Shown here: piece by piece, positions 11,316-24,628 of the stretch
Layout: each line of letters begins with the position of its first letter
Numbering within the stretch: position 1 is the first letter of the stretch
Assembly: GCA_040768125.1 (NCBI GenBank)
Contig: JAXGNG010000001.1
Location: 1,351,318 to 1,415,317, forward strand
Source: Spirochaetota bacterium
Lineage (GTDB): Bacteria > Spirochaetota > UBA4802 > UBA5550
DNA: 64,000 bases
Direction: 5' to 3'
Made by a program: the position numbers and the translations under genes
The notes under the pieces: generated by a model
Databases searched by the model: none
Seen by the model: the letters and a program-made list of their open reading frames with translations, nothing else
What the model was told of the DNA's origin: nothing

Positions 11316-11621
11316 CACGTCGTTTTATTCCATCGGGTGACACGCGTTGGCGCAGCCGGCCGCATTCAAACAGGGCATGCGGCGCATGGAGTTTTTTAAT
11401 TGACACGCCTTCTTTTCCGGTCATGGTGGAGGGGGTGGGGCTTTCAACATAATCATCAAGCGGGTGCGGGTATGGGCATGAAGGGATCGGAAAAGCGAAT
11501 CATGAGGCGGGCGGAGAAGGAGCGTTCTCGCAGCGAGAAGGTGGGGCGCCCCGGGAGGTCGGGAAAGACGAGGCGCGCAATAGGGAGTTTCATCGTCGAG
11601 AAGCGATCGATCGTCCCCAAC

Positions 11622-12353
11622 ATGATCACCATGTCAAACATGACCATGGGGTTCTTCGCCATCATACTCGCGAGTAAGGGGGACCACCGGTCCCTCGCAA
11701 TGGCGGGGATACTGGTATGCGTGGGCACGTTTTTTGACGCTATCGACGGCGCCGTCGCCCGCGCCATGCACGTGGCCAGTCCCGTGGGGGTGCAGCTTGA
11801 TTCACTCGCCGATGGCATCGCCTACGGCATCGCCCCGGCGGTAATCGCCTACCAGGCCTACCTTTCCGAGCTTCCGAAGAGCGGCTTTTTCGTGGATACC
11901 GGCATGCTGATCGCCCTGATCTATCCGATCTGCGCCATATACCGCCTCGCGCGTTTCAATATCGGCGCTCTTGAAGAGGAGCAGAAGGGATTCACCGGAC
12001 TTCCCTCGCCGGCCGCGGGGATACTGATCGCGGTTATTCCCGCCCTGGAAATTCCCGACTTCATGTTCCTGATCAAATTCACGGTGAGGTTTCCCCTCTG
12101 GGTATTCGTGCCCGTCTATGTTGTCGCGGGCCTTCTTATGGTTTCGCGGATAGACTACGGCAAGACCTTTGCCACCATTTTCCGAAAGGGTCGCGTCGCG
12201 CTGGTCCTGACCATCATAGCGATGATCCTTCTGCTCAGCCTATTCAGCATGTGGTGCATTTTCGGCGTGATCGCGGGCTATATCCTGATAGGGATCATCC
12301 AGTACACGGTCAAACTTTTCAAAAGGCGTCCGGCGTCACCCGCAACGAAGTAA
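11622..12353 (+). CDS. pssA: CDP-diacylglycerol--serine O-phosphatidyltransferase (CDP-alcohol phosphatidyltransferase family)
   Basis: FDAIDGAVARAMHVASPVGVQLDSLADGIAYGIAPA = D-G-x2-A-R...G-x3-D-x3-D motif. Track ORF runs from 11400 with a basic K/R-rich N-extension; conserved start is taken at MITMSNMTMGFFAIIL (11622), but an earlier start is possible. Confidence 0.7.
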   Translation: MITMSNMTMGFFAIILASKGDHRSLAMAGILVCVGTFFDAIDGAVARAMHVASPVGVQLDSLADGIAYGIAPAVIAYQAYLSELPKSGFFVDTGMLIALIYPICAIYRLARFNIGALEEEQKGFTGLPSPAAGILIAVIPALEIPDFMFLIKFTVRFPLWVFVPVYVVAGLLMVSRIDYGKTFATIFRKGRVALVLTIIAMILLLSLFSMWCIFGVIAGYILIGIIQYTVKLFKRRPASPATK

Positions 12354-12361
12354 AGGACACA

Positions 12362-13543
12362 GTGAAATCAGGTGATATACTCATTATAGGGGCGTCAGCC
12401 GCAGGGGTCTCGGCGGCCAGGGAGATCAGGGCGGTCGATCCAACCGTTCCCGTGAGACTTTTTTCTGAGGAGCCGGTATTTCCCTATTACCGTCCCTTCC
12501 TGACGGAGGCGATCGGCGACGAGGCAGTGGAGGAACGATCCGGGTTCTTTCTCAACGCGGAAGGGTGGTATGAGAAGAACGGCATCGAAGTGAGGCGCGG
12601 TGAGAAGGTGGCCCATATCGATACCGGGGCACGGGAAATCGTAACGGCCCGGGGCGACCGGCATTCCTACGGCAGGTGCATCATCGCCACGGGCAGCCAT
12701 CCCTTCGTTCCGTTCCCGAACGCGTGTGAGCGGGAAAACGTCTTCGCGGTGAGAACGCTGCGGGACGCAGCGGACGTGAGGGAGTGCGCGAAGCGGTCGT
12801 CCAGCGCGATCGTTGTCGGTGGAGGACTCCTGGGGCTTGAGGCGGCGCACTTCCTTTCGGCGCGGGGACTCAGGGTGACCGTTCTCGAGGCGAGTGACAG
12901 GATCCTCCCGCGGCAGCTCGACGAGGAATGCGCTGAGATCGCCTGCCGCATCATCGAAAAAAACAGCGTTGAGCTTATCCTGGGCGTTACGGCCGATTCC
13001 ATACTGGGGGAGGGCAGGGCGACGGGCCTGAAACTCTCAACGGGGGCCGAGCTATCGGCCGACATGATCGTTTTTTCGATCGGCGTGAGACCCTCAGTTG
13101 AGCTCGCGCGGGAATGCGGCATCCGCGTTGACCGCGCAATCGTCGTCAATGAAATGATGGAGACCTCTGAACCGGGGATATACGCCTGCGGTGATGCCGC
13201 GGAATTCATGGGTAAGACCATGGCCCTCTGGATGCCGGCGGTGAAGCAGGGAAAAATCGCGGGATCCAACGCAGCGGGACGCGCCGCCAGGTTCGAGGAC
13301 GAGGTGTACCCCGCGGTCCTGAATCTTTTCGGCACGAGGCTTTTCTCGGCCGGCTCCCTCTGCCAGGACATGTCCGATGGGGAATACCGGCCCTGTATGG
13401 ATAAGGACGAGGAGAAGGGTCATTACCGGAAGACCTTTTACATTGATGACAGGCTGGCGGGTTTCATCCTGATCGGGAACGTGAGCGAATCGAAAAGGCT
13501 CCTTGATGAGTTCAGGAATGGCGCCCCGCCTGGGCCCAGGTGA
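12362..13543 (+). CDS. FAD/NAD(P)-dependent pyridine nucleotide-disulfide oxidoreductase (NADH oxidase/CoA-disulfide reductase-like)
   Basis: GTG start after AAGGA RBS right after the pssA stop; ILIIGASAAGVSAA and VVGGGLLGLEAA Rossmann motifs. Track ORF 12251..13543 has a spurious N-extension overlapping pssA. Confidence 0.7.
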   Translation: MKSGDILIIGASAAGVSAAREIRAVDPTVPVRLFSEEPVFPYYRPFLTEAIGDEAVEERSGFFLNAEGWYEKNGIEVRRGEKVAHIDTGAREIVTARGDRHSYGRCIIATGSHPFVPFPNACERENVFAVRTLRDAADVRECAKRSSSAIVVGGGLLGLEAAHFLSARGLRVTVLEASDRILPRQLDEECAEIACRIIEKNSVELILGVTADSILGEGRATGLKLSTGAELSADMIVFSIGVRPSVELARECGIRVDRAIVVNEMMETSEPGIYACGDAAEFMGKTMALWMPAVKQGKIAGSNAAGRAARFEDEVYPAVLNLFGTRLFSAGSLCQDMSDGEYRPCMDKDEEKGHYRKTFYIDDRLAGFILIGNVSESKRLLDEFRNGAPPGPR

Positions 13544-14255: not shown

Positions 14256-14323
14256 AATAATAACCCAGCAATTTCTTCTACCAATAGAGGAAACCAATTC
14301 ATTTTTTTTTAAGGAGGATGGAA

Positions 14324-14608
14324 GTGGCTCTAAAACCTATAGGCGATCGTGTCGTCGTTGAGTTGCTTGATCAGGAAGAGGAGAAAGTCGGATCTATCTA
14401 CGTGCCTGATACCGCGAAAGAAAAACCCCAGCAGGGTAAGGTTGTGGCGGTTGGCCAGGGCAAACGTGACGGCAAGGACCTTGTGCCGATGACGGTCAAG
14501 GCGGGAGATACGGTAATTTTCAGCAAGTACGGCGGGATGGAAGTCAAGCATGGCGGAAAAGATCTTCTCATCCTTTCCGAAGGAGACATACTGGCGATTA
14601 TCGAGTAG
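14324..14608 (+). CDS. groES: Co-chaperonin GroES
   Basis: (M)[12 protein letters not shown]...GKVVAVG... canonical GroES; a GTG start at 14324 gives proper spacing from the AAGGAGG RBS (track ORF uses ATG 14318, abutting the RBS). Confidence 0.9.
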
Positions 14609-14760
14609 ATGCGGGAAGGGCCATGGCAGCCGGTCACGCCGCTACCCGGCATGCCGGTTCGGGCCGCGGGGGAAACGCGGAACACCGGCACCTGGTCGCC
14701 TTCCCTTCACCTGAACTGCGGATAATCATTTTTCACAACGACAACCAAATATTCTGATGA

Positions 14761-16407
<1,647 letters not shown>

Positions 16408-16439
16408 CGCGCGAAAGCTCAATAATTCGGCAAAAGGAA

Positions 16440-16471
16440 AGGGTCGGGATAGTATCCCGGCCCTTTTTTTA
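16440..16471 (+). terminator. Rho-independent terminator after groEL
   Basis: GGGUCGGGAUA-gu-AUCCCGGCCC hairpin followed by TTTTTTTAT. Confidence 0.65.
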
Positions 16472-16604
16472 TTCCACCTGGTGCCGGTGAGGGTAAAAAA
16501 AGAATATATTCAGCTTGCCGCCCCGTTGTCCGATGATTGAACGGGGGAGGCGCCGCGTGAGGCACGGAATCCGACGCCCGTTTCCCCGGTGAGACCGACG
16601 GGAT

Positions 16605-17501
16605 GTGCGGTGGTACATGGACAACAGCGCGACAGTGACATTGCCGAACAGGTTCCGGGATCCCTACGATTTCGAGTATGTCATAGATCTCCGCGAGGCG
16701 ATCATGGGCGGCGCGCGGAGCCTGGACCTGTCCCGTATCTCCTTCATCGAGCCCTATTCAATGCTTTCGCTCCTCCTGATGGGGAGGGAGTACCTGAGAA
16801 AAACGGGCACCAAGCTTCACCTCGTGGGGATTCCACTCTCCATACACCAGTATCTTCACCGCATGGATTTTTTCAAGGCGGGTATCTTTGACGTGGCCGA
16901 CAGGCTGGACGACAAGCTTCTCCTCAAGCGCAGTTCATTCAGCCGACGGGTCATCGAGATCACCGAGATACCCAACAAGGAGAGGGAGAGCGTCCGCGTC
17001 ATATCCTCCATCGTGGGGGTCTTCAGGAAGCGCGCGGCGCACATCCTCAAACACTGGCTCACGGACAGGGTGGTTGACTATTTCGTCACCGTTATTTCAG
17101 AAATATGCCAGAACGTCTTCGAGCACAGCCTCGACTCCGGTTACCTCGCTATGCAGACCTACACGGCGGGCAAGGAGCAGGTAGTGAGGCTCTGCATAAG
17201 CGATTCGGGGATAGGCATCGAAAAAAGTTTCGAGAACAGCGGCGTGCGGTATGATTCACCGGCAAACCTTATAGAGCTCGCGCTCACGACTCCCATTTCC
17301 AGCAAGAGGGAGTTCGGGTACGGTCTGAGCCAGGTACACGCGATCGTGGAAAGGCTGAAGGGAAGCATCTACTTTCGTTCCGGCGCGGCGTCGGTTTCGA
17401 CGCTGTACCACAGGAAGAACCCGGGTTCGTCGTACCTCTTCCTCAAGAACGACCTGAGCGCATTCTGCGGGACCCAGATATCGATTTCACTGATGGGATA
17501 G
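16605..17501 (+). CDS. Fusion protein: N-terminal STAS-like (anti-sigma-antagonist-like) domain + C-terminal GHKL/HATPase_c domain (RsbW/SpoIIAB-like kinase)
   Basis: N-terminus LDLSRISFIEPYSMLSLLLMGREYL..KLHLVGIP resembles SpoIIAA/STAS; C-terminus has N-box EICQNVFEHS, G1 ISDSGIGI and G2 GYGLSQ of HATPase_c. Confidence 0.6.
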   Translation: MRWYMDNSATVTLPNRFRDPYDFEYVIDLREAIMGGARSLDLSRISFIEPYSMLSLLLMGREYLRKTGTKLHLVGIPLSIHQYLHRMDFFKAGIFDVADRLDDKLLLKRSSFSRRVIEITEIPNKERESVRVISSIVGVFRKRAAHILKHWLTDRVVDYFVTVISEICQNVFEHSLDSGYLAMQTYTAGKEQVVRLCISDSGIGIEKSFENSGVRYDSPANLIELALTTPISSKREFGYGLSQVHAIVERLKGSIYFRSGAASVSTLYHRKNPGSSYLFLKNDLSAFCGTQISISLMG

Positions 17502-17512
17502 AACGAAGGGAT

Positions 17513-18064
17513 ATGGTCATCAAGGTAAAAAAGAAAGCCGAGGAGCTGAAGCTGAGGTCTCCGGACCTGATCACGCGGCATATGGGGCGGGCGCTCTACG
17601 GGGCCGTGATGTCCCTCGTGGAAGCCATGGGGGACGACGAGACACTGGTGCTGGACTTCGAGGGGGTCAAGGTCATCGATTCGTCCTTCGTGGACGAGTT
17701 CATCGTGAGGCTGATTCTCGACTCCGTGCGTTCCGAAGGGCCGTTTTACGTGAAGCTGAAGAATCTTTCGGAAATCTCCGAGATGAACATTGACATGGTG
17801 CTTCGCTTTCATTCGAAGTACAAAAACAAAAAAATTGTTGTAATAACCGAAAACATCTGTCAGAATAATGCCTTCTTCATCGGTCCCCTCTCGGACCGTG
17901 AGCGGGAATTCATTGAGTTTATCCGCGTCAACAGGTCGGTCATGACGGGCGATATCGCCAGGTTCACGGGTGGGCAGGGGGAGGACGTGGAAAAGATGAT
18001 GGATGAATGCCATTCCATGAGGATCGTTAAGAAGGACGGTAAGGGCGTTTACAGCGCGGTTTGA
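17513..18064 (+). CDS. DUF4325-type STAS-like domain protein with C-terminal winged-HTH-like region
   Basis: TLVLDFEGVKVIDSSFVDEFIVRLI matches the STAS-like DUF4325 signature (recalled); C-terminal REREFIEFIRVNRSVMTGDIARFTG looks HTH-like; 11 nt after previous gene. Confidence 0.5.
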   Translation: MVIKVKKKAEELKLRSPDLITRHMGRALYGAVMSLVEAMGDDETLVLDFEGVKVIDSSFVDEFIVRLILDSVRSEGPFYVKLKNLSEISEMNIDMVLRFHSKYKNKKIVVITENICQNNAFFIGPLSDREREFIEFIRVNRSVMTGDIARFTGGQGEDVEKMMDECHSMRIVKKDGKGVYSAV

Positions 18065-18576
18065 AGACCGGGAGGACACGTCGGGGTCGCATAACGGATC
18101 GGACGGTTATGAAAGCCGTATCAAAAAAAATCAAAAAAGAGAGGGATGACAGCCTCTACGGCCTCCTCTCGTCATACAAATCCAGTACCACGTACCTCCG
18201 CATCCTCGAATCCGAGGAGGAAGATTCGGTGGTGGTCCAGCTGACGGACAACCCGGGTAATTTTCAGTCGATCCCCCAGGAGCAATTCAGGGGCTACAGG
18301 GCCCTCCGCCGGCTCGAGATGGGTGTGCAGCGCATGTCCCTCAAGTACGTGCTCCCGGAGTATCTCATCGACGTGCTGGGGCCCATGCTCGAGTTCAACA
18401 TCCCCTTCGATAAGGCGGTTATAATCGACGGTATCCAGAAGGACGGGTTATACAGCATAATGACCAAGTTGAAGTACAGGATGAAGGTAATCCAGGGAGC
18501 GAGGAAGATCCTTAACCTGAGCCCCCAGAAACGGTACGAGATCCTGGAAAAATATTTTTCCGCGAACGGGGAATGA
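18061..18576 (+). CDS. Hypothetical protein (171 aa), translationally coupled (ATGA overlap)
   Basis: ORF with coding-like composition, 4-nt overlap with upstream gene; no recognised domain. Confidence 0.5.
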   Translation: MKTGRTRRGRITDRTVMKAVSKKIKKERDDSLYGLLSSYKSSTTYLRILESEEEDSVVVQLTDNPGNFQSIPQEQFRGYRALRRLEMGVQRMSLKYVLPEYLIDVLGPMLEFNIPFDKAVIIDGIQKDGLYSIMTKLKYRMKVIQGARKILNLSPQKRYEILEKYFSANGE

Positions 18577-18582
18577 ACGGCG

Positions 18583-19602
18583 ATGCAGGAATACAATTCA
18601 TTGCAGGAAAAGGCGAAACTGGTGGACATCGCCCTGAAGTACACGAGGGGCGACATCATAAAGGCCAAGGAAATGGCCTCCGGGCAGTACATGGACATCA
18701 TGGCGGTGAAGGGGAAATTTTACGTCGATAAGAAGAACGTCGCCGGGGTGTTCATCGCTTTTTTCAATTTCATACAGGAATACGTCGCCAACGTGGCCTG
18801 CCTCCTTTCATCGGAGCCGGGTCTATTCGAAAAAACGCGCGTTTTCGACGACTGGAAATCGCTCTACCGTGACATCGGTGCCGGCAGGAAGGGACCGGGG
18901 GTCATCGATTCCCAGAATTTCACCTACTATCTCCTCGACTCCTTCGTGAGCTACGATGTCTTTCCCGACGTACAGGAAAAAAACCTCGTTGAACTGACCG
19001 AGGCGGTGAAGGATATCCTCGCAAAATCATTCGGTGCCGGCTCCGTACGGTGCCAGATTGAGCTTGAACCCGCGTCCTCAGTCGCCCTCGATATCGCGGG
19101 TGTGGCCATCGACGTCCCCTCCGGCACTTCAAAGGAGGTCAATGAGGTCGCCAATGAGGATGAGCGCATCACGAAGCTTGAAAGCGAGGCGCGCTACATC
19201 GTCGAGGGGAGCGCGGTCCTCGCGCCGGTGAAGGGAAAGAACATCAGCGATCTGAATCCCGGGGATAAGATACGCGTGATGCTCACAGGGAAGGATGCCG
19301 TGTCCGAAAAGATACTCAGGCTGGTAAATGCCTATGGCCCCGACGGCAGCCGGTCGTCGGTGACGGGAAGGGTCAAGGCGAAGATCCCCTTCGAAAAGGG
19401 CGGGATCATGCTTTATGCCTTTGTCGCAAAGGGGGTCCTGGCGAAGATGTTCGAGGAGGAGAACGTCAGGATCATGCTCGACGTGCCCTCGCAGGAGGCC
19501 CCGGCGGAAAGCCATTTCATGGAGAATCGCGCGACTTATCTCATCGCGCTGGTCCTGGGCCTTGTCGTCCTCGCGGGGCTCATCCTGCTCCAGCTGTTAT
19601 GA
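18583..19602 (+). CDS. Hypothetical protein (339 aa) with C-terminal transmembrane anchor
   Basis: 6 nt after previous gene; N-terminal helical UBA/NAC-like stretch; C-terminal ATYLIALVLGLVVLAGLILLQLL TM helix. Confidence 0.5.
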   Translation: MQEYNSLQEKAKLVDIALKYTRGDIIKAKEMASGQYMDIMAVKGKFYVDKKNVAGVFIAFFNFIQEYVANVACLLSSEPGLFEKTRVFDDWKSLYRDIGAGRKGPGVIDSQNFTYYLLDSFVSYDVFPDVQEKNLVELTEAVKDILAKSFGAGSVRCQIELEPASSVALDIAGVAIDVPSGTSKEVNEVANEDERITKLESEARYIVEGSAVLAPVKGKNISDLNPGDKIRVMLTGKDAVSEKILRLVNAYGPDGSRSSVTGRVKAKIPFEKGGIMLYAFVAKGVLAKMFEEENVRIMLDVPSQEAPAESHFMENRATYLIALVLGLVVLAGLILLQLL

Positions 19603-20468
19603 CCATGCGGTCAACACCGATCCGCATTCTCTTTTTCCTTGCCGCGGTATTTCTTTCAGGACAGATGCCCGACTGGAAGCACTTCAGGGACAGGGAGGGG
19701 AATTCCTATTTCATCGACAGGGCGGGGAGAATCCGGATAACCTCGTCCGATGCTCCCGCCTATCGGCCGGTCTCCTCCCGCGCCATCGACTACCACCTTC
19801 ATTACGGCGAAACCCTCATCAAGGAGCGCCGCTACGCAGAGGCGCTCACGGTGCTCAAGTCAATCTGCGCCCTTCCCGCCGGGAATAACCGGGTCTACGA
19901 GGCCCAGGTGCGGGCGAGGGAGGCACTGGGAGATTTGCGCAGGCGGAACGGCGCGCGTTTTGACCGGATGAACGAATCCGCCTCGCTCCTGCTCTATATG
20001 GACGGATCGGACATTGTCGTTATCAATGATTTCATGCGTTACTCCTTTCGGGGGCCCCCGGGCATGCGCGTCATCAGGAGGAGGGAACGGGGCGGCAGGG
20101 ATTATCGCTATTCAGGCACGCTTCTGGGGATAACCCGCGGCGCGGATAAGGAGGACTACTATGCCTACCTCGTGGCCGTGGACAGCGAGATAATCGGGAA
20201 CCCCTTCAGGGATGTCGAGCAGGCCCGGGAAAAATGGCGGGGATATCTCGGTTTCGACACGCTCGCGCGCGAACTCGTGCTGCGCGGGGAAGACCGGATT
20301 GTCCATCGGTTCAGGAGCGGGTCCCCGCCGGTGTACGCGGGCTATGAGGCTGTTTTTCTTAACGGGAAAATCACGCACTGTGTCCGCGTCATCGCCTCGG
20401 AGGCCGGTTTCACGGCAGACGGCGAGGCGATGAAACGGATCGTCGAGGGATTTTCCCTCGTGCGATGA
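19599..20468 (+). CDS. Hypothetical secreted protein (289 aa), ATGA-coupled to upstream gene
   Basis: N-terminal signal peptide RILFFLAAVFLSGQ; TPR-like helical segment; no assignable family. Confidence 0.5.
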   Translation: MTMRSTPIRILFFLAAVFLSGQMPDWKHFRDREGNSYFIDRAGRIRITSSDAPAYRPVSSRAIDYHLHYGETLIKERRYAEALTVLKSICALPAGNNRVYEAQVRAREALGDLRRRNGARFDRMNESASLLLYMDGSDIVVINDFMRYSFRGPPGMRVIRRRERGGRDYRYSGTLLGITRGADKEDYYAYLVAVDSEIIGNPFRDVEQAREKWRGYLGFDTLARELVLRGEDRIVHRFRSGSPPVYAGYEAVFLNGKITHCVRVIASEAGFTADGEAMKRIVEGFSLVR

Positions 20469-20483: not shown

Positions 20484-20954
20484 CTATCCCGTGTAGACGA
20501 GGGCGGTTTCGGTGCAGTTCAGCCGGTTGGGGCAGCCCGCGCAATCCTTCCATATTTTTTCCGGGAGATCGTTCCTGTCGATTGCAGTAAACCCGTTCTT
20601 CTCGAAAAAAAGAGGGGCGTAGGTGAGCACGAATATCCTGGGGTGCCCGTCCCCACGGGACAGGGCGGTGATGAGGGTCCGCAGAAGCGCCGTGCCGATA
20701 CCCCTCCGGAGATGCTCCTTGTGCACCGCCAGGGAGCGCACTTCCTTGAGATGGTCGCCGTAATCGTAAAACGTGACCACCCCGGTAATGGCGTCATTCT
20801 CCTCCGTCACGAAGAACTTGTTTATGTCGGCGCCGATGTCATCGGGGCTCCGCGCAAGGAGTATCCCCTCCGATGCGTAGGATGATATGATGGCGTGGAT
20901 TTTGCCGATCTCATCTGTCCTTGCTTTTCGAACGATCGCCTCGGTTTTCACCAT
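20484..20954 (-). CDS. GNAT N-acetyltransferase, ArgA-like short N-acetylglutamate synthase type with C-terminal Cys cluster
   Basis: RRGIGTALLRTLI acetyl-CoA motif; C-terminal KIWKDCAGCPNRLNCTE cysteine motif typical of short ArgA-like GNATs. Confidence 0.78.
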   Translation of the reverse strand: MVKTEAIVRKARTDEIGKIHAIISSYASEGILLARSPDDIGADINKFFVTEENDAITGVVTFYDYGDHLKEVRSLAVHKEHLRRGIGTALLRTLITALSRGDGHPRIFVLTYAPLFFEKNGFTAIDRNDLPEKIWKDCAGCPNRLNCTETALVYTG

Positions 20955-21659: not shown

Positions 21660-21835
21660 GCCTGGTTCCCTGGATCACACATCATTCCGGGAGACGGACA
21701 CGCCAGGTGCCGCGCATCTCGTTTCCGGGACTCATTATATGAATTCGACATTGTTTGAACGGCGCATAAGAAATTAATTCCGCGCCGGGAAGGGCGGGTT
21801 GAATAAAAAAATGGGCATCCGGCGAGGAATTATAC

Positions 21836-21864
21836 TTGCCAGCATTCATTTGCCGGGTTATAAT
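21836..21864 (+). promoter_or_regulatory. Near-consensus sigma70 promoter TTGCCA-N17-TATAAT upstream of the STAS gene
   Basis: Perfect -10 TATAAT, 17-nt spacer, 5/6 -35. Confidence 0.5.
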
Positions 21865-21939
21865 CTTAGTCATCCAGGTATCCAGAGGCATTCACACGGC
21901 CAATCCAGGGATGTTTCGGAGACGGCGGGGGCCGTACGG

Positions 21940-22320
21940 ATGAAGGAGAAATTCCACGCCATGCGCGGCATCGAGTTCACACAGTACGATTCATATTCAG
22001 TTATTACCCTGCCCGTGGAGGAGATGGATTTCATCAAAACCCCGAAAATATCCGCGGCGATTCAGCGGGAGATCGAGGGCGCGGGGTTCCCGAACATCGT
22101 GCTGGAATTGCCCAACCTCTACTACATCGACTCGACCGGCATGAGCAGCATCGTCAACCTGAGCAGGGCGATGAAGGAAAAGGGAAGCGAAATGGTGCTG
22201 GTTTGTGGAAGCCCGAGGATCATCCAGATCTTCGGCATCGCGAAAATCGGCGCGCATATCAGGATCTTCGGCTCCCTCGAGGACGCCGAGCGTTATTTTA
22301 TCTCCAGGCCCTCATCGTAA
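21940..22320 (+). CDS. STAS domain anti-sigma factor antagonist (SpoIIAA/RsbV-like)
   Basis: MKEKFHAMRGIEFTQYDSYSVITLPVEEMDF...LELPNLYYIDSTGMSSIVNLSRAMKEKGSEMVLVCGSPRI; start trimmed from track ORF 21799. Confidence 0.75.
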   Translation: MKEKFHAMRGIEFTQYDSYSVITLPVEEMDFIKTPKISAAIQREIEGAGFPNIVLELPNLYYIDSTGMSSIVNLSRAMKEKGSEMVLVCGSPRIIQIFGIAKIGAHIRIFGSLEDAERYFISRPSS

Positions 22321-23788: not shown

Positions 23789-24036
23789 CCCCTGGATTCC
23801 CTGCCGGGAGCGGTATGCGGTTAATCAGATTCCGGCGGCGCCATTTTTCAAGTATTTTCTTCCCCTCGCCGGGAAAATACTAAATGCGGGGGTGAGGGTT
23901 TTACCGGAAATTATCTTGACGGGGATGGGTATTGCTGGAAGAATATTTACGGATCGGGCAGGGGAAAGGACTTCGCCTCGGTGAATTCCCCTGAAGGACC
24001 GGGTACCACTTCAGTGCATCGGCAGGCGTGTGGATT

Positions 24037-24628
24037 CATGAGACCTCGAGAAATTTTTCAGGACAAAATACTTACGCTGTCCAACGTGCTCACCCTGGTC
24101 AGAATAATGGCCGGTCCCGTTCTGGGCTATTTCATCTACCTCGAACACCGGACCGGCGACGCGTCCTATGTCGCGCACCAGATGGCCGTCGTGGTGGTGA
24201 TCATCCTCTCGGATTTTTTCGACGGTTTTCTTGCCCGCCTGATGAACCAGGTTACGCGGCTCGGACAGTTTCTCGATCCCGTGGCGGACAAGTTCGCGGT
24301 TATCGTTGCCATGGTTTTTCTCGCGCTTTTCAAGGGCTTTCCCCTCTGGGTCCTTGTCCTGGTGCTCGTCAGGGAGGCGGTTGCCGTCGTCGCCGGGGTA
24401 ATCCTCTACACGAAAAAAGATATCGATGTGAAGCCGAACATTTTCGGAAAGCTCTGTGCCGCCAGCATGGCACTGAGCGGCATTATCTACGTGATGTCGA
24501 TTGACTACACCGTCATGGGGATCACCGTAAAGGACGGGTCAGTTTTCCTGGTTATTCTATTCTACGTTCTCGGCGGGATACTCTACGCCAGGTCGTACCT
24601 GAGGGGCGGTCTTGAAAAGAAGGCTTAG
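24037..24628 (+). CDS. pgsA: CDP-diacylglycerol--glycerol-3-phosphate 3-phosphatidyltransferase
   Basis: DFFDGFLARLMNQVTRLGQFLDPVADKF CDP-alcohol phosphatidyltransferase motif; start trimmed to MRPREIF. Confidence 0.8.

Follow-up and report, generated by a model that had tools for sequence, protein, structure and literature searches.

The locus lies in a window of 64,000 nucleotides, the window being the whole stretch of DNA that was analysed. It comprises five co-oriented genes, referred to here as K, S, g3, g4 and g5, together with the features listed below.

16429..16475, + strand: hairpin with 23-nt inverted-repeat arms followed by T7, 3' of groEL, a probable intrinsic terminator
16605..17501, + strand: gene K, a STAS-GHKL protein, putative CapK/VapK-type serine kinase (ORF listing, hhalign)
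16626..16904, + strand: STAS-fold domain of K, residues ~8-100 (AlphaFold, Foldseek, Pfam matches of relatives)
16980..17498, + strand: GHKL (HATPase_c) kinase domain of K, residues ~126-298 (Pfam, invariant columns, fold)
17513..18064, + strand: gene S, a CapS-like protein of 183 aa (DUF4325, CapS profile matches)
17879-18040, + strand: C-terminal winged-helix domain of S, residues ~123-176 (profile alignment to CapS)
18061..18576, + strand: gene g3, a conserved protein of 171 aa from TTG 18061 or ~155 aa from ATG 18109
18583..19602, + strand: gene g4, 339 aa, with a hydrophobic segment at the C-terminus
19599..20468, + strand: gene g5, 289 aa, hydrophobic at the N-terminus and weakly TPR-like in one stretch
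20484..20954, − strand: GNAT acetyltransferase gene, convergent, next after g5

The gap between K and S is 11 nt, and g5, with which the co-oriented cluster ends, starts within the last 4 nt of g4. In a synteny comparison of 82 loci, S comes after K in 81 and g3 after S in 80, and g4 and g5 are syntenic in 78 and 68 of them, respectively. The S-g3 spacing is 0-60 nt in most genomes, and g3 is probably co-transcribed with S. The cluster headed by K and S is kept across uncultured Leptospirales, often just 3' of groESL, and its neighbours in the window are housekeeping genes; it is chromosomal and has been conserved vertically. A single-domain STAS gene is also present at 21799..22320, 1.3 kb beyond the downstream end of the cluster.

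The original prediction described K as a single polypeptide joining a STAS-like and a GHKL domain, and named an assembly error fusing two genes among the things that would overturn it. The ORF of K encodes 298 aa from GTG 16605 without an internal stop and 294 aa from ATG 16617; the latter is the likely start, because homologues begin at the fifth codon of K in the alignment of 38 orthologues. The peptide quoted for the STAS-like N-terminus, LDLSRISFIEPYSMLSLLLMG, corresponds to K residues 40-60. Database searches returned 292 proteins or clusters with 59-95% identity to K at ~98% coverage. A genome scan, which used an alignment of close homologues, found a K relative encoded in at least 99 species-level genomes, and each of the 80 loci kept gave a single contiguous K match. 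Since the same uninterrupted protein of ~295 aa recurs in so many genomes and independent assemblies, and the domain junction IEITEIPNKERE ranks with the most conserved parts of the alignment, the explanation that the ORF is a frameshift or assembly artefact joining two genes is effectively refuted. The fusion of a STAS-fold domain with a SpoIIAB-like GHKL domain in one ORF, as evident from Pfam, AlphaFold and Foldseek, is ancient and conserved. The AlphaFold model of K (pLDDT 80.8, pTM 0.83) also predicts the arrangement of the two domains confidently.

The predicted presence of a complete HATPase_c domain is borne out by a Pfam match at residues 160-261 (E=3.6e-8, 34.3 bits; gathering score 26.4) and by its motifs. 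The N box is E166-x3-N170-x3-H174 (17100-17126), the G1 box D200-S-G-I-G204 (17202-17216) and the G2 box G238-Y-G240-L241 (17316-17327), and the family further carries the signature Q184-x-Y186 and a C-terminal G-T-Q motif. Residues N170, D200, G202, G204 and G240 are invariant among 101 diverse relatives, in 92 of which Pfam finds HATPase_c. The C-terminal fold matches SpoIIAB, the CheA P4 domain and catalytic domains of histidine kinases, the best target-normalised TM-scores of the GHKL domain (0.66-0.72) all being to SpoIIAB. The ATP-binding and catalytic motifs of K are intact, and K is a putative kinase.

Several database records name K orthologues 'sensor histidine kinase', and the Pfam HATPase_c match as well as weak NCBIfam and PDB sequence matches to histidine-kinase catalytic domains could be taken in favour of a two-component function. 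This is highly improbable. The Pfam scans of K and its 101 relatives show no HisKA/DHp domain, no invariant histidine occurs in the helix preceding the GHKL domain, and the NCBIfam scores all fall far under their cut-offs. The cluster and the nearby genes contain no response regulator, and the layout of a single helix followed by the GHKL domain is that of SpoIIAB.

The STAS-like nature of the N-terminus, also predicted earlier, holds by fold and by relatives, but not by the sequence of K itself. Pfam STAS (PF01740) scores below threshold against K (E=0.047, 13.9 bits against 22.6), and a profile of the N-terminal region found no match among PDB sequences. As sequence alone does not identify the domain, it is assigned from its fold and from better-scoring relatives. 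STAS_2 is matched by 25 and STAS by 23 of the 101 diverse relatives (best E-values 3e-6 and 8.5e-6, respectively). The N-terminal model has a pLDDT of ~90 over residues 10-100, with the STAS fold beginning at about residue 8-10. For the model of residues 1-128, the top 50 PDB fold matches are all STAS domains (MlaB, SpoIIAA, RsbV, RsbS, SLC26). Their Foldseek probabilities range from 0.84 to 1.0, 48 of the 50 reaching 0.9 or above, and the target-normalised TM-scores go up to 0.74.

The residues of this domain do not resemble those of a phosphorylated antagonist. K residues P50-Y51-S52 (16752-16760) occupy the site of the antagonists' phospho-serine, and the position equivalent to the phospho-serine of SpoIIAA and CapS is Tyr in 50, Phe in 11 and Ser in only 9 of the 101 relatives. 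The adjacent Ser52 is invariant within the Leptospirales clade; as its column holds Gly in 77 of the 101 relatives, it is not a family-wide acceptor. The best explanation is that the STAS domain of K is regulatory and not phosphorylatable at the usual site.

The domain which looks like a substrate appears to be that of S, a separate protein. Pfam DUF4325 (STAS-like) matches S at residues ~14-110 above threshold (E=1.9e-5), and a MarR_2 match was recorded in the S orthologue of another locus (L001). The S motif V-I-D56-S57-S58-F-V-D-E places Ser58 (codon 17684-17686) where the STAS domain of K has P50-Y51, i.e. at the canonical phospho-serine position, and D56, S58 and E62 are invariant in all 80 orthologues. 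The two STAS domains do not match each other significantly in hhalign (E=0.069, Prob 0.8%) and are therefore not recent duplicates. The S profile matches the crystal-structure sequences of CapS (9z72/9z73 and 9z71, over both domains) and of VapS (9z7o). The modest direct match of S to CapS (hhalign E=6.2e-5, Prob 64.7%) covers 151 columns spanning the STAS and winged-helix domains and brings Ser58 opposite CapS Ser54, the experimentally demonstrated phospho-acceptor (PMC13373217).

These results bear on the proposal that the fused STAS is antagonist-like and regulated in cis by a phospho-switch. According to this explanation K would be a self-contained partner-switching unit, whose STAS antagonist is phosphorylated or bound in cis to control the release of a sigma factor. 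The similarity of the GHKL fold to the anti-sigma kinase SpoIIAB, the match of the N-terminal domain to SpoIIAA, RsbV and RsbS, the clade-wide Ser52 beside the canonical site, and the precedent of a fused kinase and STAS in Rv1364c are in line with it. It is nevertheless very unlikely, as Pro50-Tyr51 stands at the acceptor site and the neighbouring Ser52 is replaced by Gly in most relatives, whereas S, a STAS protein whose serine at the canonical position is invariant, adjoins K in 81 of 82 loci. In addition, a sigma-factor or PP2C/SpoIIE domain is absent from the annotated genes between 8989 and 25781, the cluster included, and the homologous CapK and VapK act on a separate STAS protein (PMC13373217). 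The related notion that the antagonist is no longer separate from its kinase is likewise not supported, given that the substrate-like STAS is encoded 11 nt downstream of K.

CapK and VapK have been described by Chambers, Rani, Min, Villa and Corbett (EMBO J 2026; PMC13373217). CapK is an ssDNA-activated HTH-STAS-GHKL kinase that phosphorylates the repressor CapS, a STAS-wHTH protein, and capKS precedes immune operons of the Bub, CBASS, Bil and Thoeris types; in 348 of 443 capKS loci an immune operon, known or predicted, follows directly (PMC13373217). VapK is a STAS-GHKL kinase without the HTH, and its substrate VapS is the antitoxin of the VapC PIN nuclease (PMC13373217). The fused STAS of CapK is proposed to form, together with the GHKL domain, the groove for the activating ssDNA and is not proposed as a substrate, while the N-terminal HTH was dispensable in the authors' assays (PMC13373217). 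Together with Rv1364c (PMC9138534), these proteins precede K, and the premise that such fusions were unknown does not stand.

Alignment of the K family profile to CapK of E. roggenkampii by hhalign gave Prob 99.2 and E=5.7e-20, starting at the STAS 'YLxRxxFF' helix, ending at the C-terminal 'GTQV' motif and pairing N170 of K with the active-site Asn218 of CapK. Alignment to Escherichia VapK (Prob 98.2, E=2.9e-14) covered 255 columns in both domains, with P50 and N170 of K opposite VapK P57 and the N-box Asn of VapK. The identity of K to CapK and VapK is only ~20%.

An aromatic residue is required for ssDNA activation in both kinases (CapK W68, VapK F54), and the basic residues K237 and K239 of CapK are proposed to contact ssDNA (PMC13373217). 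F47 of K (16743-16745) aligns with VapK F54 in a column that is F or W in 97 of the 101 relatives; as this column is hydrophobic in STAS domains generally, its conservation is no proof of ssDNA binding. CapK K237 and K239 align with T187 and G189 of K; a Lys or Arg occurs only at the neighbouring residue 190, in 25 of the 38 members of the clade.

A different use of the same pair would be mainly stoichiometric, with ATP-bound K acting as an anti-repressor that sequesters S or another partner, phosphotransfer being slow or dispensable. This would resemble the holding of sigma-F by SpoIIAB, and GHKL anti-sigma kinases (SpoIIAB, RsbW) act through binding as well as phosphorylation. The 11-nt spacing also suggests that K and S are translated from one transcript in similar amounts. 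We consider a mainly stoichiometric role unlikely, since even very divergent relatives of K retain, without exception, the catalytic Glu and Asn of the N box as well as both Gly-rich boxes, and Ser58 of S is strictly invariant. In the CapK/CapS system the complex could be purified, but phosphorylation itself is needed, as evident from mutants S54A and N218A, and the CapS variant S54E, a phosphomimetic, is enough for constitutive expression (PMC13373217).

The profile search with the K family yielded 356 clusters at 50% identity with E<1e-10; the representative relatives number 1,567. In an exhaustive profile search, distant relatives of K were found in typical capKS contexts, followed by partners of 185-199 aa. 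At L090 such a relative precedes a Bil operon, at L088 a Prok-E2/ThiF/JAB operon with TIR and NACHT genes on its flanks, and at L083 a KAP NTPase. The partners at L088, L089 and L090 match the S profile at E-values of 1e-23 to 2e-10 with the serine kept; the partner at L083, whose sequence was itself among those building the S profile, matches S of the window pairwise at E=8e-9, also with the serine kept. In the distant relative P0141 the next gene encodes a zinc-ribbon protein that is not CapS-like, so the K-S pairing is frequent, not universal, across the wider family.

For the genes downstream of S, searches of Pfam, NCBIfam and the PDB sequences produced only sub-threshold noise. For g3 there was no match in any of these or in PADLOC, for g4 and g5 none among the PDB sequences, and the TPR-like stretch of g5 reaches only E=0.03 with Pfam TPR_14. 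The PADLOC defence-system models gave no match for K, S, g3 or g4, and g3-g5 contain no recognisable immune gene (Pfam; PADLOC for g3 and g4) and no Pfam PIN match. The g4 product matches the NCBIfam family LIC10486_fam at E=3.5e-15, which suggests a distant relationship to this Leptospira family. Orthology of the cluster with LIC10483-LIC10487 of Leptospira interrogans, suggested by this weak match, was dropped because g4 scores only 55.9 bits against a cut-off of 500, and because a search with K from a MAG carrying the label 'Leptospira biflexa' gave, among its best 120 matches, metagenomic or MAG proteins only and none of cultured Leptospira.

As the probable terminator separates groESL from the K cluster, the promoter of K must fall within 16476-16604, a region with no sigma-70-like match on the + strand. 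No CIRCE operator was found near groESL at up to 3 mismatches. Among 82 regions upstream of K no palindrome was common to more than 5, and among the 9 longest S-g3 spacers none occurred in more than 2. No 8-9-mer was convincingly common upstream of K (82 loci) or in the longer S-g3 spacers, and these loci showed none of the TTAA-type palindromes known from CapS operators; the motif search ran on diverged sequences, and this negative outcome is compatible with an operator.

Taken together, K and S probably constitute a kinase-substrate pair of the CapK/CapS type that switches the genes controlled by S. K would be soluble and would join a regulatory STAS domain to a serine-kinase domain of the SpoIIAB kind, and S would be a dimeric winged-helix DNA-binding protein whose STAS-like domain supplies the acceptor Ser58. 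If K behaves like CapK, the kinase may be turned on by a ligand that binds where its STAS and GHKL domains meet, the ligand in the characterised systems being single-stranded DNA from DNA damage. Activated K would then phosphorylate Ser58, an event expected to break the S dimer, free S from its operator and de-repress the controlled genes. If S is a repressor like CapS, these genes would most likely be K-S-g3-g4-g5 itself, which are co-oriented and tightly packed.

It is conceivable, though doubtful, that in uncultured Leptospirales the module is a vertically inherited core regulator instead of a guard of mobile immune operons, that it controls the partly envelope-associated g3-g5, and that its signal is either damage-derived ssDNA or another ligand of the STAS-GHKL groove. 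If so, the clade would display a housekeeping and possibly ancestral use of the module, and the STAS-GHKL sensor family would be much larger and functionally broader than the ~730 immune-associated loci so far described. The apparent oddity of an antagonist fused to its kinase becomes a recognisable signalling module with a concrete candidate mechanism, and the CapK/CapS family is extended to a setting not reported for it, a conserved non-mobile cluster without immune context that spans a whole order-level spirochaete lineage. Confirmation would make the kinase-repressor switch a general bacterial stress-signalling device, not an accessory of immune islands, and would give g3-g5 their first regulatory handle.

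Among known systems, SpoIIAB/SpoIIAA and RsbW/RsbV share with K and S the GHKL serine-kinase fold, the same predicted chemistry and a STAS partner with the serine at the N-terminus of helix alpha-2. Unlike SpoIIAB and RsbW, K carries an additional N-terminal STAS of its own, its cluster has no sigma-factor or PP2C phosphatase gene, and the output presumably passes through a DNA-binding domain that is part of S, not through a sigma factor. Rv1364c of M. tuberculosis, with PAS, PP2C, kinase and STAS domains in one polypeptide (PMC9138534), is the earlier precedent for an anti-sigma-type kinase and a STAS in a single chain and is likened to K by architecture. It differs in that its STAS is C-terminal to the kinase, the reverse order, and is itself the phospho-substrate, in the additional PAS and PP2C domains, and in its output, sigma-F.

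The architecture of K is identical to that of VapK (STAS-GHKL, ~290 aa). VapS ends in a short C-terminal helix, whereas S bears a CapS-like winged-helix domain, and no PIN/VapC gene follows S. Unlike CapK, K is devoid of the N-terminal HTH, and the 130 nt upstream of it hold no ORF; the ssDNA-contact lysines of CapK are not kept in place. CapS recognises palindromic operators located both in its own and in the downstream promoter (PMC13373217), whereas here the 11 nt between K and S leave no intergenic promoter region and none was detected between S and g3. The pair is followed by the uncharacterised, partly membrane-associated g3-g5 and no known immune genes, and lies in a vertically conserved chromosomal cluster amid housekeeping genes. 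As in CapK/CapS, a STAS domain precedes the SpoIIAB-like GHKL domain in a kinase with profile homology, the kinase gene precedes the substrate gene, this next gene encodes a STAS and winged-helix protein of ~180 aa, and the serine of the D-S-S motif is strictly conserved (Ser58 of S, Ser54 of CapS). On these comparisons, K-S is judged to be a new, divergent member of the CapK/VapK-type systems.

The gene of the STAS-GHKL protein (K) opens a cluster with S, a CapS-like gene, and three further genes (g3, g4 and g5), which lies behind groES-groEL as follows.

14318..14608, groES, upstream of K
14773..16407, groEL, directly upstream of the K cluster
16429-16475, strong hairpin with a T-run, the end of groES-groEL (14318..16475)
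16605..17501 (+), K, open from a GTG, 298 aa
17513..18064 (+), S, 183 aa, after a gap of 11 nt
stop at 18576 (+), g3, about 155-171 aa
18583..19602 (+), g4, 339 aa, hydrophobic C-terminus
19599..20468 (+), g5, 289 aa, hydrophobic N-terminus

The genes S to g5 share the orientation of K and are tightly packed, and a convergent GNAT acetyltransferase gene marks the end of the cluster. K likely starts at the ATG at 16617, since the other orthologues begin at this fifth-codon position (38-orthologue alignment). The surroundings comprise genes for aspartokinase, Ddl, CDP-alcohol phosphatidyltransferases, MoaC, groESL, GNAT, a SPOR protein, pseudouridine synthase and amidase, and PADLOC models gave no match in K, S, g3 or g4; the context is not an immune island. 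A window-wide search for a CIRCE (HrcA) operator, allowing up to 3 mismatches, was negative. Searches of Pfam, NCBIfam and PDB sequences returned no informative matches for g3, g4 and g5. The weak but significant similarity of g4 to the NCBIfam 'LIC10486 family protein' (E=3.5e-15; 55.9 bits, cut-off 500) suggests a distant relative of this Leptospira family; LIC10486 of L. interrogans is uncharacterised and was reported as seroreactive in patients (PMC3798601).

Further features of the neighbourhood were recorded. At 21799..22320 (+), 1.3 kb past the cluster end, a 173-aa protein of the classical anti-sigma antagonist type has STAS (PF01740) as its sole Pfam match (E=1.9e-14, residues 63-163). 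An antisense ORF of 236 aa (17369..18079, -) spans almost all of S and is probably a side effect of G+C richness in the opposing coding strand. Two CDP-alcohol phosphatidyltransferase genes, 11400..12353 and 23981..24628 (+), are no more than 13 kb apart; the former is overlapped for ~100 nt by the ORF of a pyridine nucleotide-disulphide oxidoreductase with a rubredoxin-reductase C-terminal domain (12251..13543), the true start of which therefore probably lies further downstream.

That the K ORF is an assembly artefact joining two genes has a practically negligible probability. A search of 5.8 billion proteins yielded 292 homologues at 59-95% identity over ~98% of the length, all of ~295 aa, and 99 species encode a relative when genomes are scanned one per species; orthologues with the same fusion thus exist and the fusion is genuine. 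The domain junction, IEITEIPNKERE, is among the best-conserved stretches of K in the orthologue alignment. Of the 80 loci kept, all but two carry a Spirochaetota, Spirochaetes or Leptospirales MAG label, and in one the protein is 98% identical to K of the window. The cluster also occurs in MAGs deposited as 'Leptospira biflexa' (L070, DYLV01000013.1) and 'Leptospira sp.' (L052, CAZCYH010000001.1); the best 120 matches of the L070 K protein include none from cultured Leptospira, and both labels look too specific.

The original prediction of a STAS-like N-terminus and a complete HATPase_c in one polypeptide is borne out by motif and fold. The C-terminal half matches Pfam HATPase_c above the gathering threshold (E=3.6e-8) and retains the N box (E166, N170, H174), G1 (D200-x-G-x-G204) and G2 (G238-x-G240-L); N170, D200, G202, G204 and G240 are invariant among 101 relatives only 23-49% identical to K of the window. 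An AlphaFold model derived from 38 orthologues (pLDDT 80.8, pTM 0.83) matches CheA P4, histidine-kinase catalytic domains and the anti-sigma kinase SpoIIAB, the last with the best target-normalised TM-scores (0.66-0.72); this half is a bona fide GHKL domain. Some database records call K orthologues histidine kinases, but the lack of a DHp domain, a conserved histidine and a response regulator makes a two-component kinase very improbable.

By sequence, the STAS assignment is weak: the N-terminus, including the STAS-like peptide first noticed (K residues 40-60), stays below the Pfam STAS threshold (E=0.047; 13.9 bits against 22.6), and among PDB sequences nothing matched a profile made from its first 128 residues. 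It is nevertheless upheld by two independent lines, the Pfam matches of diverse relatives (STAS_2 in 25 of 101, best 3e-6; STAS in 23 of 101, best 8.5e-6) and a fold search. A separate model of residues 1-128 (pLDDT ~90 over residues 10-100) has only STAS domains among its best 50 PDB fold matches, including MlaB, SpoIIAA, RsbV, RsbS, TM1081 and SLC26 STAS, with Foldseek probabilities of 0.84-1.0 (at least 0.9 for 48/50) and target-normalised TM up to 0.74. The fold starts at about residue 8-10, and no HTH precedes it.

SpoIIAA and similar antagonists carry their acceptor serine as the second S of D-S-S-G, where helix alpha-2 begins. The counterpart in K is F47-I-E-P50-Y51-S52, a register fixed on both sides and consistent with the VapK profile alignment. 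Among the 101 relatives, the acceptor position (Y51) is mostly Y (50) or F (11), with S in 9; the preceding residue (P50) is P in 89 and the following one (S52) is G in 77, Ser52 being invariant in this clade and not family-wide. The STAS domain of the kinase family therefore generally lacks an acceptor serine, so that a switch by cis-phosphorylation is unlikely as a conserved mechanism. The fused, cis-regulated antagonist originally proposed is highly unlikely, given Pro50-Tyr51 at the acceptor site, a bona fide acceptor STAS in the adjacent S, and no sigma factor or PP2C gene in the cluster.

S scores above the Pfam threshold for DUF4325 ('STAS-like'; E=1.9e-5), and its orthologue in locus L001 has a MarR_2 match in the C-terminal third. 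The motif V-I-D56-S57-S58-F-I-D61-E62 is nearly unchanged among 80 orthologues, with D56, S58 and E62 present in 80/80. Against PDB sequences, the S profile matched four recent entries from Chambers et al. (EMBO J 2026, PMC13373217), namely 9z72/9z73 and 9z71, 'MarR family / winged helix-turn-helix transcriptional regulator', with both halves matched, and 9z7o, 'Escherichia VapS'.

Beyond the observed architecture, folds, intact motifs, homology, invariant serine and synteny, the most likely mechanism is one in which K would be a serine kinase with an N-terminal STAS for regulation or ligand sensing, and its substrate S would regulate by binding DNA; once phosphorylated at Ser58, S would change in oligomeric state and DNA binding, and expression of the cluster would change with it. 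Phosphotransfer from K to S and repression by S are suggested by analogy with the characterised homologues, and the kinase-substrate reading as a whole is considered fairly probable. An anti-repressor acting by sequestration only is improbable, as the catalytic residues and the serine are strictly conserved.

The order K-S-g3-g4-g5 is kept in nearly all loci with enough sequence; S accompanies K in 81, g3 in 80, g4 in 78 and g5 in 68 of 82 loci, and groEL lies immediately upstream in 32. Identities of the cluster proteins fall as those of GroEL do, a pattern indicating vertical inheritance. The S-g3 spacing is 0-60 nt in most genomes; neither a conserved palindrome (upstream of K or in longer S-g3 spacers) nor a sigma-70-like match (upstream of K) was found. 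The overlapping 8-mers GAAATAAT, AAATAATT, AATAATTC and ATAATTCA each recur upstream of K in ~12-15 of 82 loci (some 200 nt ahead of the start of K, L003-L082); combined, they form the non-palindromic GAAATAATTCA, which could be a promoter element or a clade-specific sequence.

When 1.84 billion representatives were searched exhaustively by profile, 1,567 K relatives were obtained at E<=1e-3 (356 at E<1e-10), most of 280-310 aa with both domains matched. The sampled contexts of distant relatives are as follows.

P0163, then a 185-aa partner, then BilA/BilB/BilD
P0137, then a 191-aa partner and a Prok-E2/ThiF/JAB operon; TIR and NACHT genes adjoin
P0134, then a partner, then a KAP NTPase
P0143, then a 199-aa partner
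P0141, then a zinc-ribbon protein, not CapS-like

Against the S profile of the window, the partners of P0137, P0143 and P0163 score E=1e-23 to 2e-10; that of P0134, itself a row of this profile, was compared pairwise with S (E=8e-9). All four also keep the serine, and the window pair is thus of one sequence family with the kinase-repressor pairs found in classic capKS settings. Pairing in the wider family is frequent and not universal, because P0141 lacks a CapS-like partner.

On the Logan SRR25419750 contig (L088:1-8876), P0137 has the textbook immune surroundings of capKS: with its partner it is flanked on one side by TIR-UvrD_C and NACHT genes in divergent orientation and on the downstream side by a Bub/Bil-like operon (Prok-E2/ThiF/JAB), although at only 291 aa it has no HTH. 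In GCA_030157145.1 (JASDBE010000007.1, L085:4001-6471), P0141 (306 aa) lies ahead of a 210-aa zinc-ribbon-like protein, beyond which come an RNase H-like/3'-5' exonuclease and a WYL protein next to priA; no CapS-like protein is present, and the sensor kinase may here serve another output.

CapK and VapK, described in 2026, already join a STAS domain to an anti-sigma-type kinase, so such a fusion is not novel any more; Rv1364c likewise unites PAS, PP2C, kinase and STAS domains (PMC9138534). CapK is an HTH-STAS-GHKL kinase activated in vitro by ssDNA, an effect abolished by W68A, and AlphaFold 3 places DNA in the groove between its STAS and GHKL domains; it phosphorylates Ser54 of the STAS-wHTH repressor CapS, whereupon the CapS dimer dissociates and the downstream immune operon (Bub, CBASS, Bil, Thoeris and others) is de-repressed (PMC13373217). 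VapK is an HTH-less relative, and VapS the antitoxin of the VapC nuclease; VapK was insoluble and could not itself be assayed, so phosphorylation of VapS was deduced from AlphaFold 3 models and mutant phenotypes (PMC13373217).

With E. roggenkampii CapK and CapS and Escherichia VapK sequences from the source files of that paper, the K-family profile matched CapK (Prob 99.2%, E=5.7e-20, 214 columns; N170 aligned with N218) and both domains of VapK (Prob 98.2%, E=2.9e-14, 255 columns; F47 with F54, P50 with P57), and the S profile matched the STAS and wHTH of CapS (Prob 64.7%, E=6.2e-5, 151 columns), aligning Ser58 with Ser54. The proposed ssDNA-contact lysines of CapK, K237 and K239, are however T187 and G189 in K, residue 190, often basic, being the only such position nearby; ssDNA as the signal for K is doubtful and the weakest link of the mechanism.

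A specialist familiar with the 2026 paper would find little surprise here; what is new is a divergent clade of uncultured Leptospirales, about 20% identical to CapK/VapK, in a vertically inherited cluster, which helps to map the reach of the CapK/CapS module beyond immunity. Its kinase resembles VapK in lacking the HTH and its partner resembles CapS; unlike CapK/CapS, the pair leaves no room for a separate capS promoter and sits in a non-immune context.
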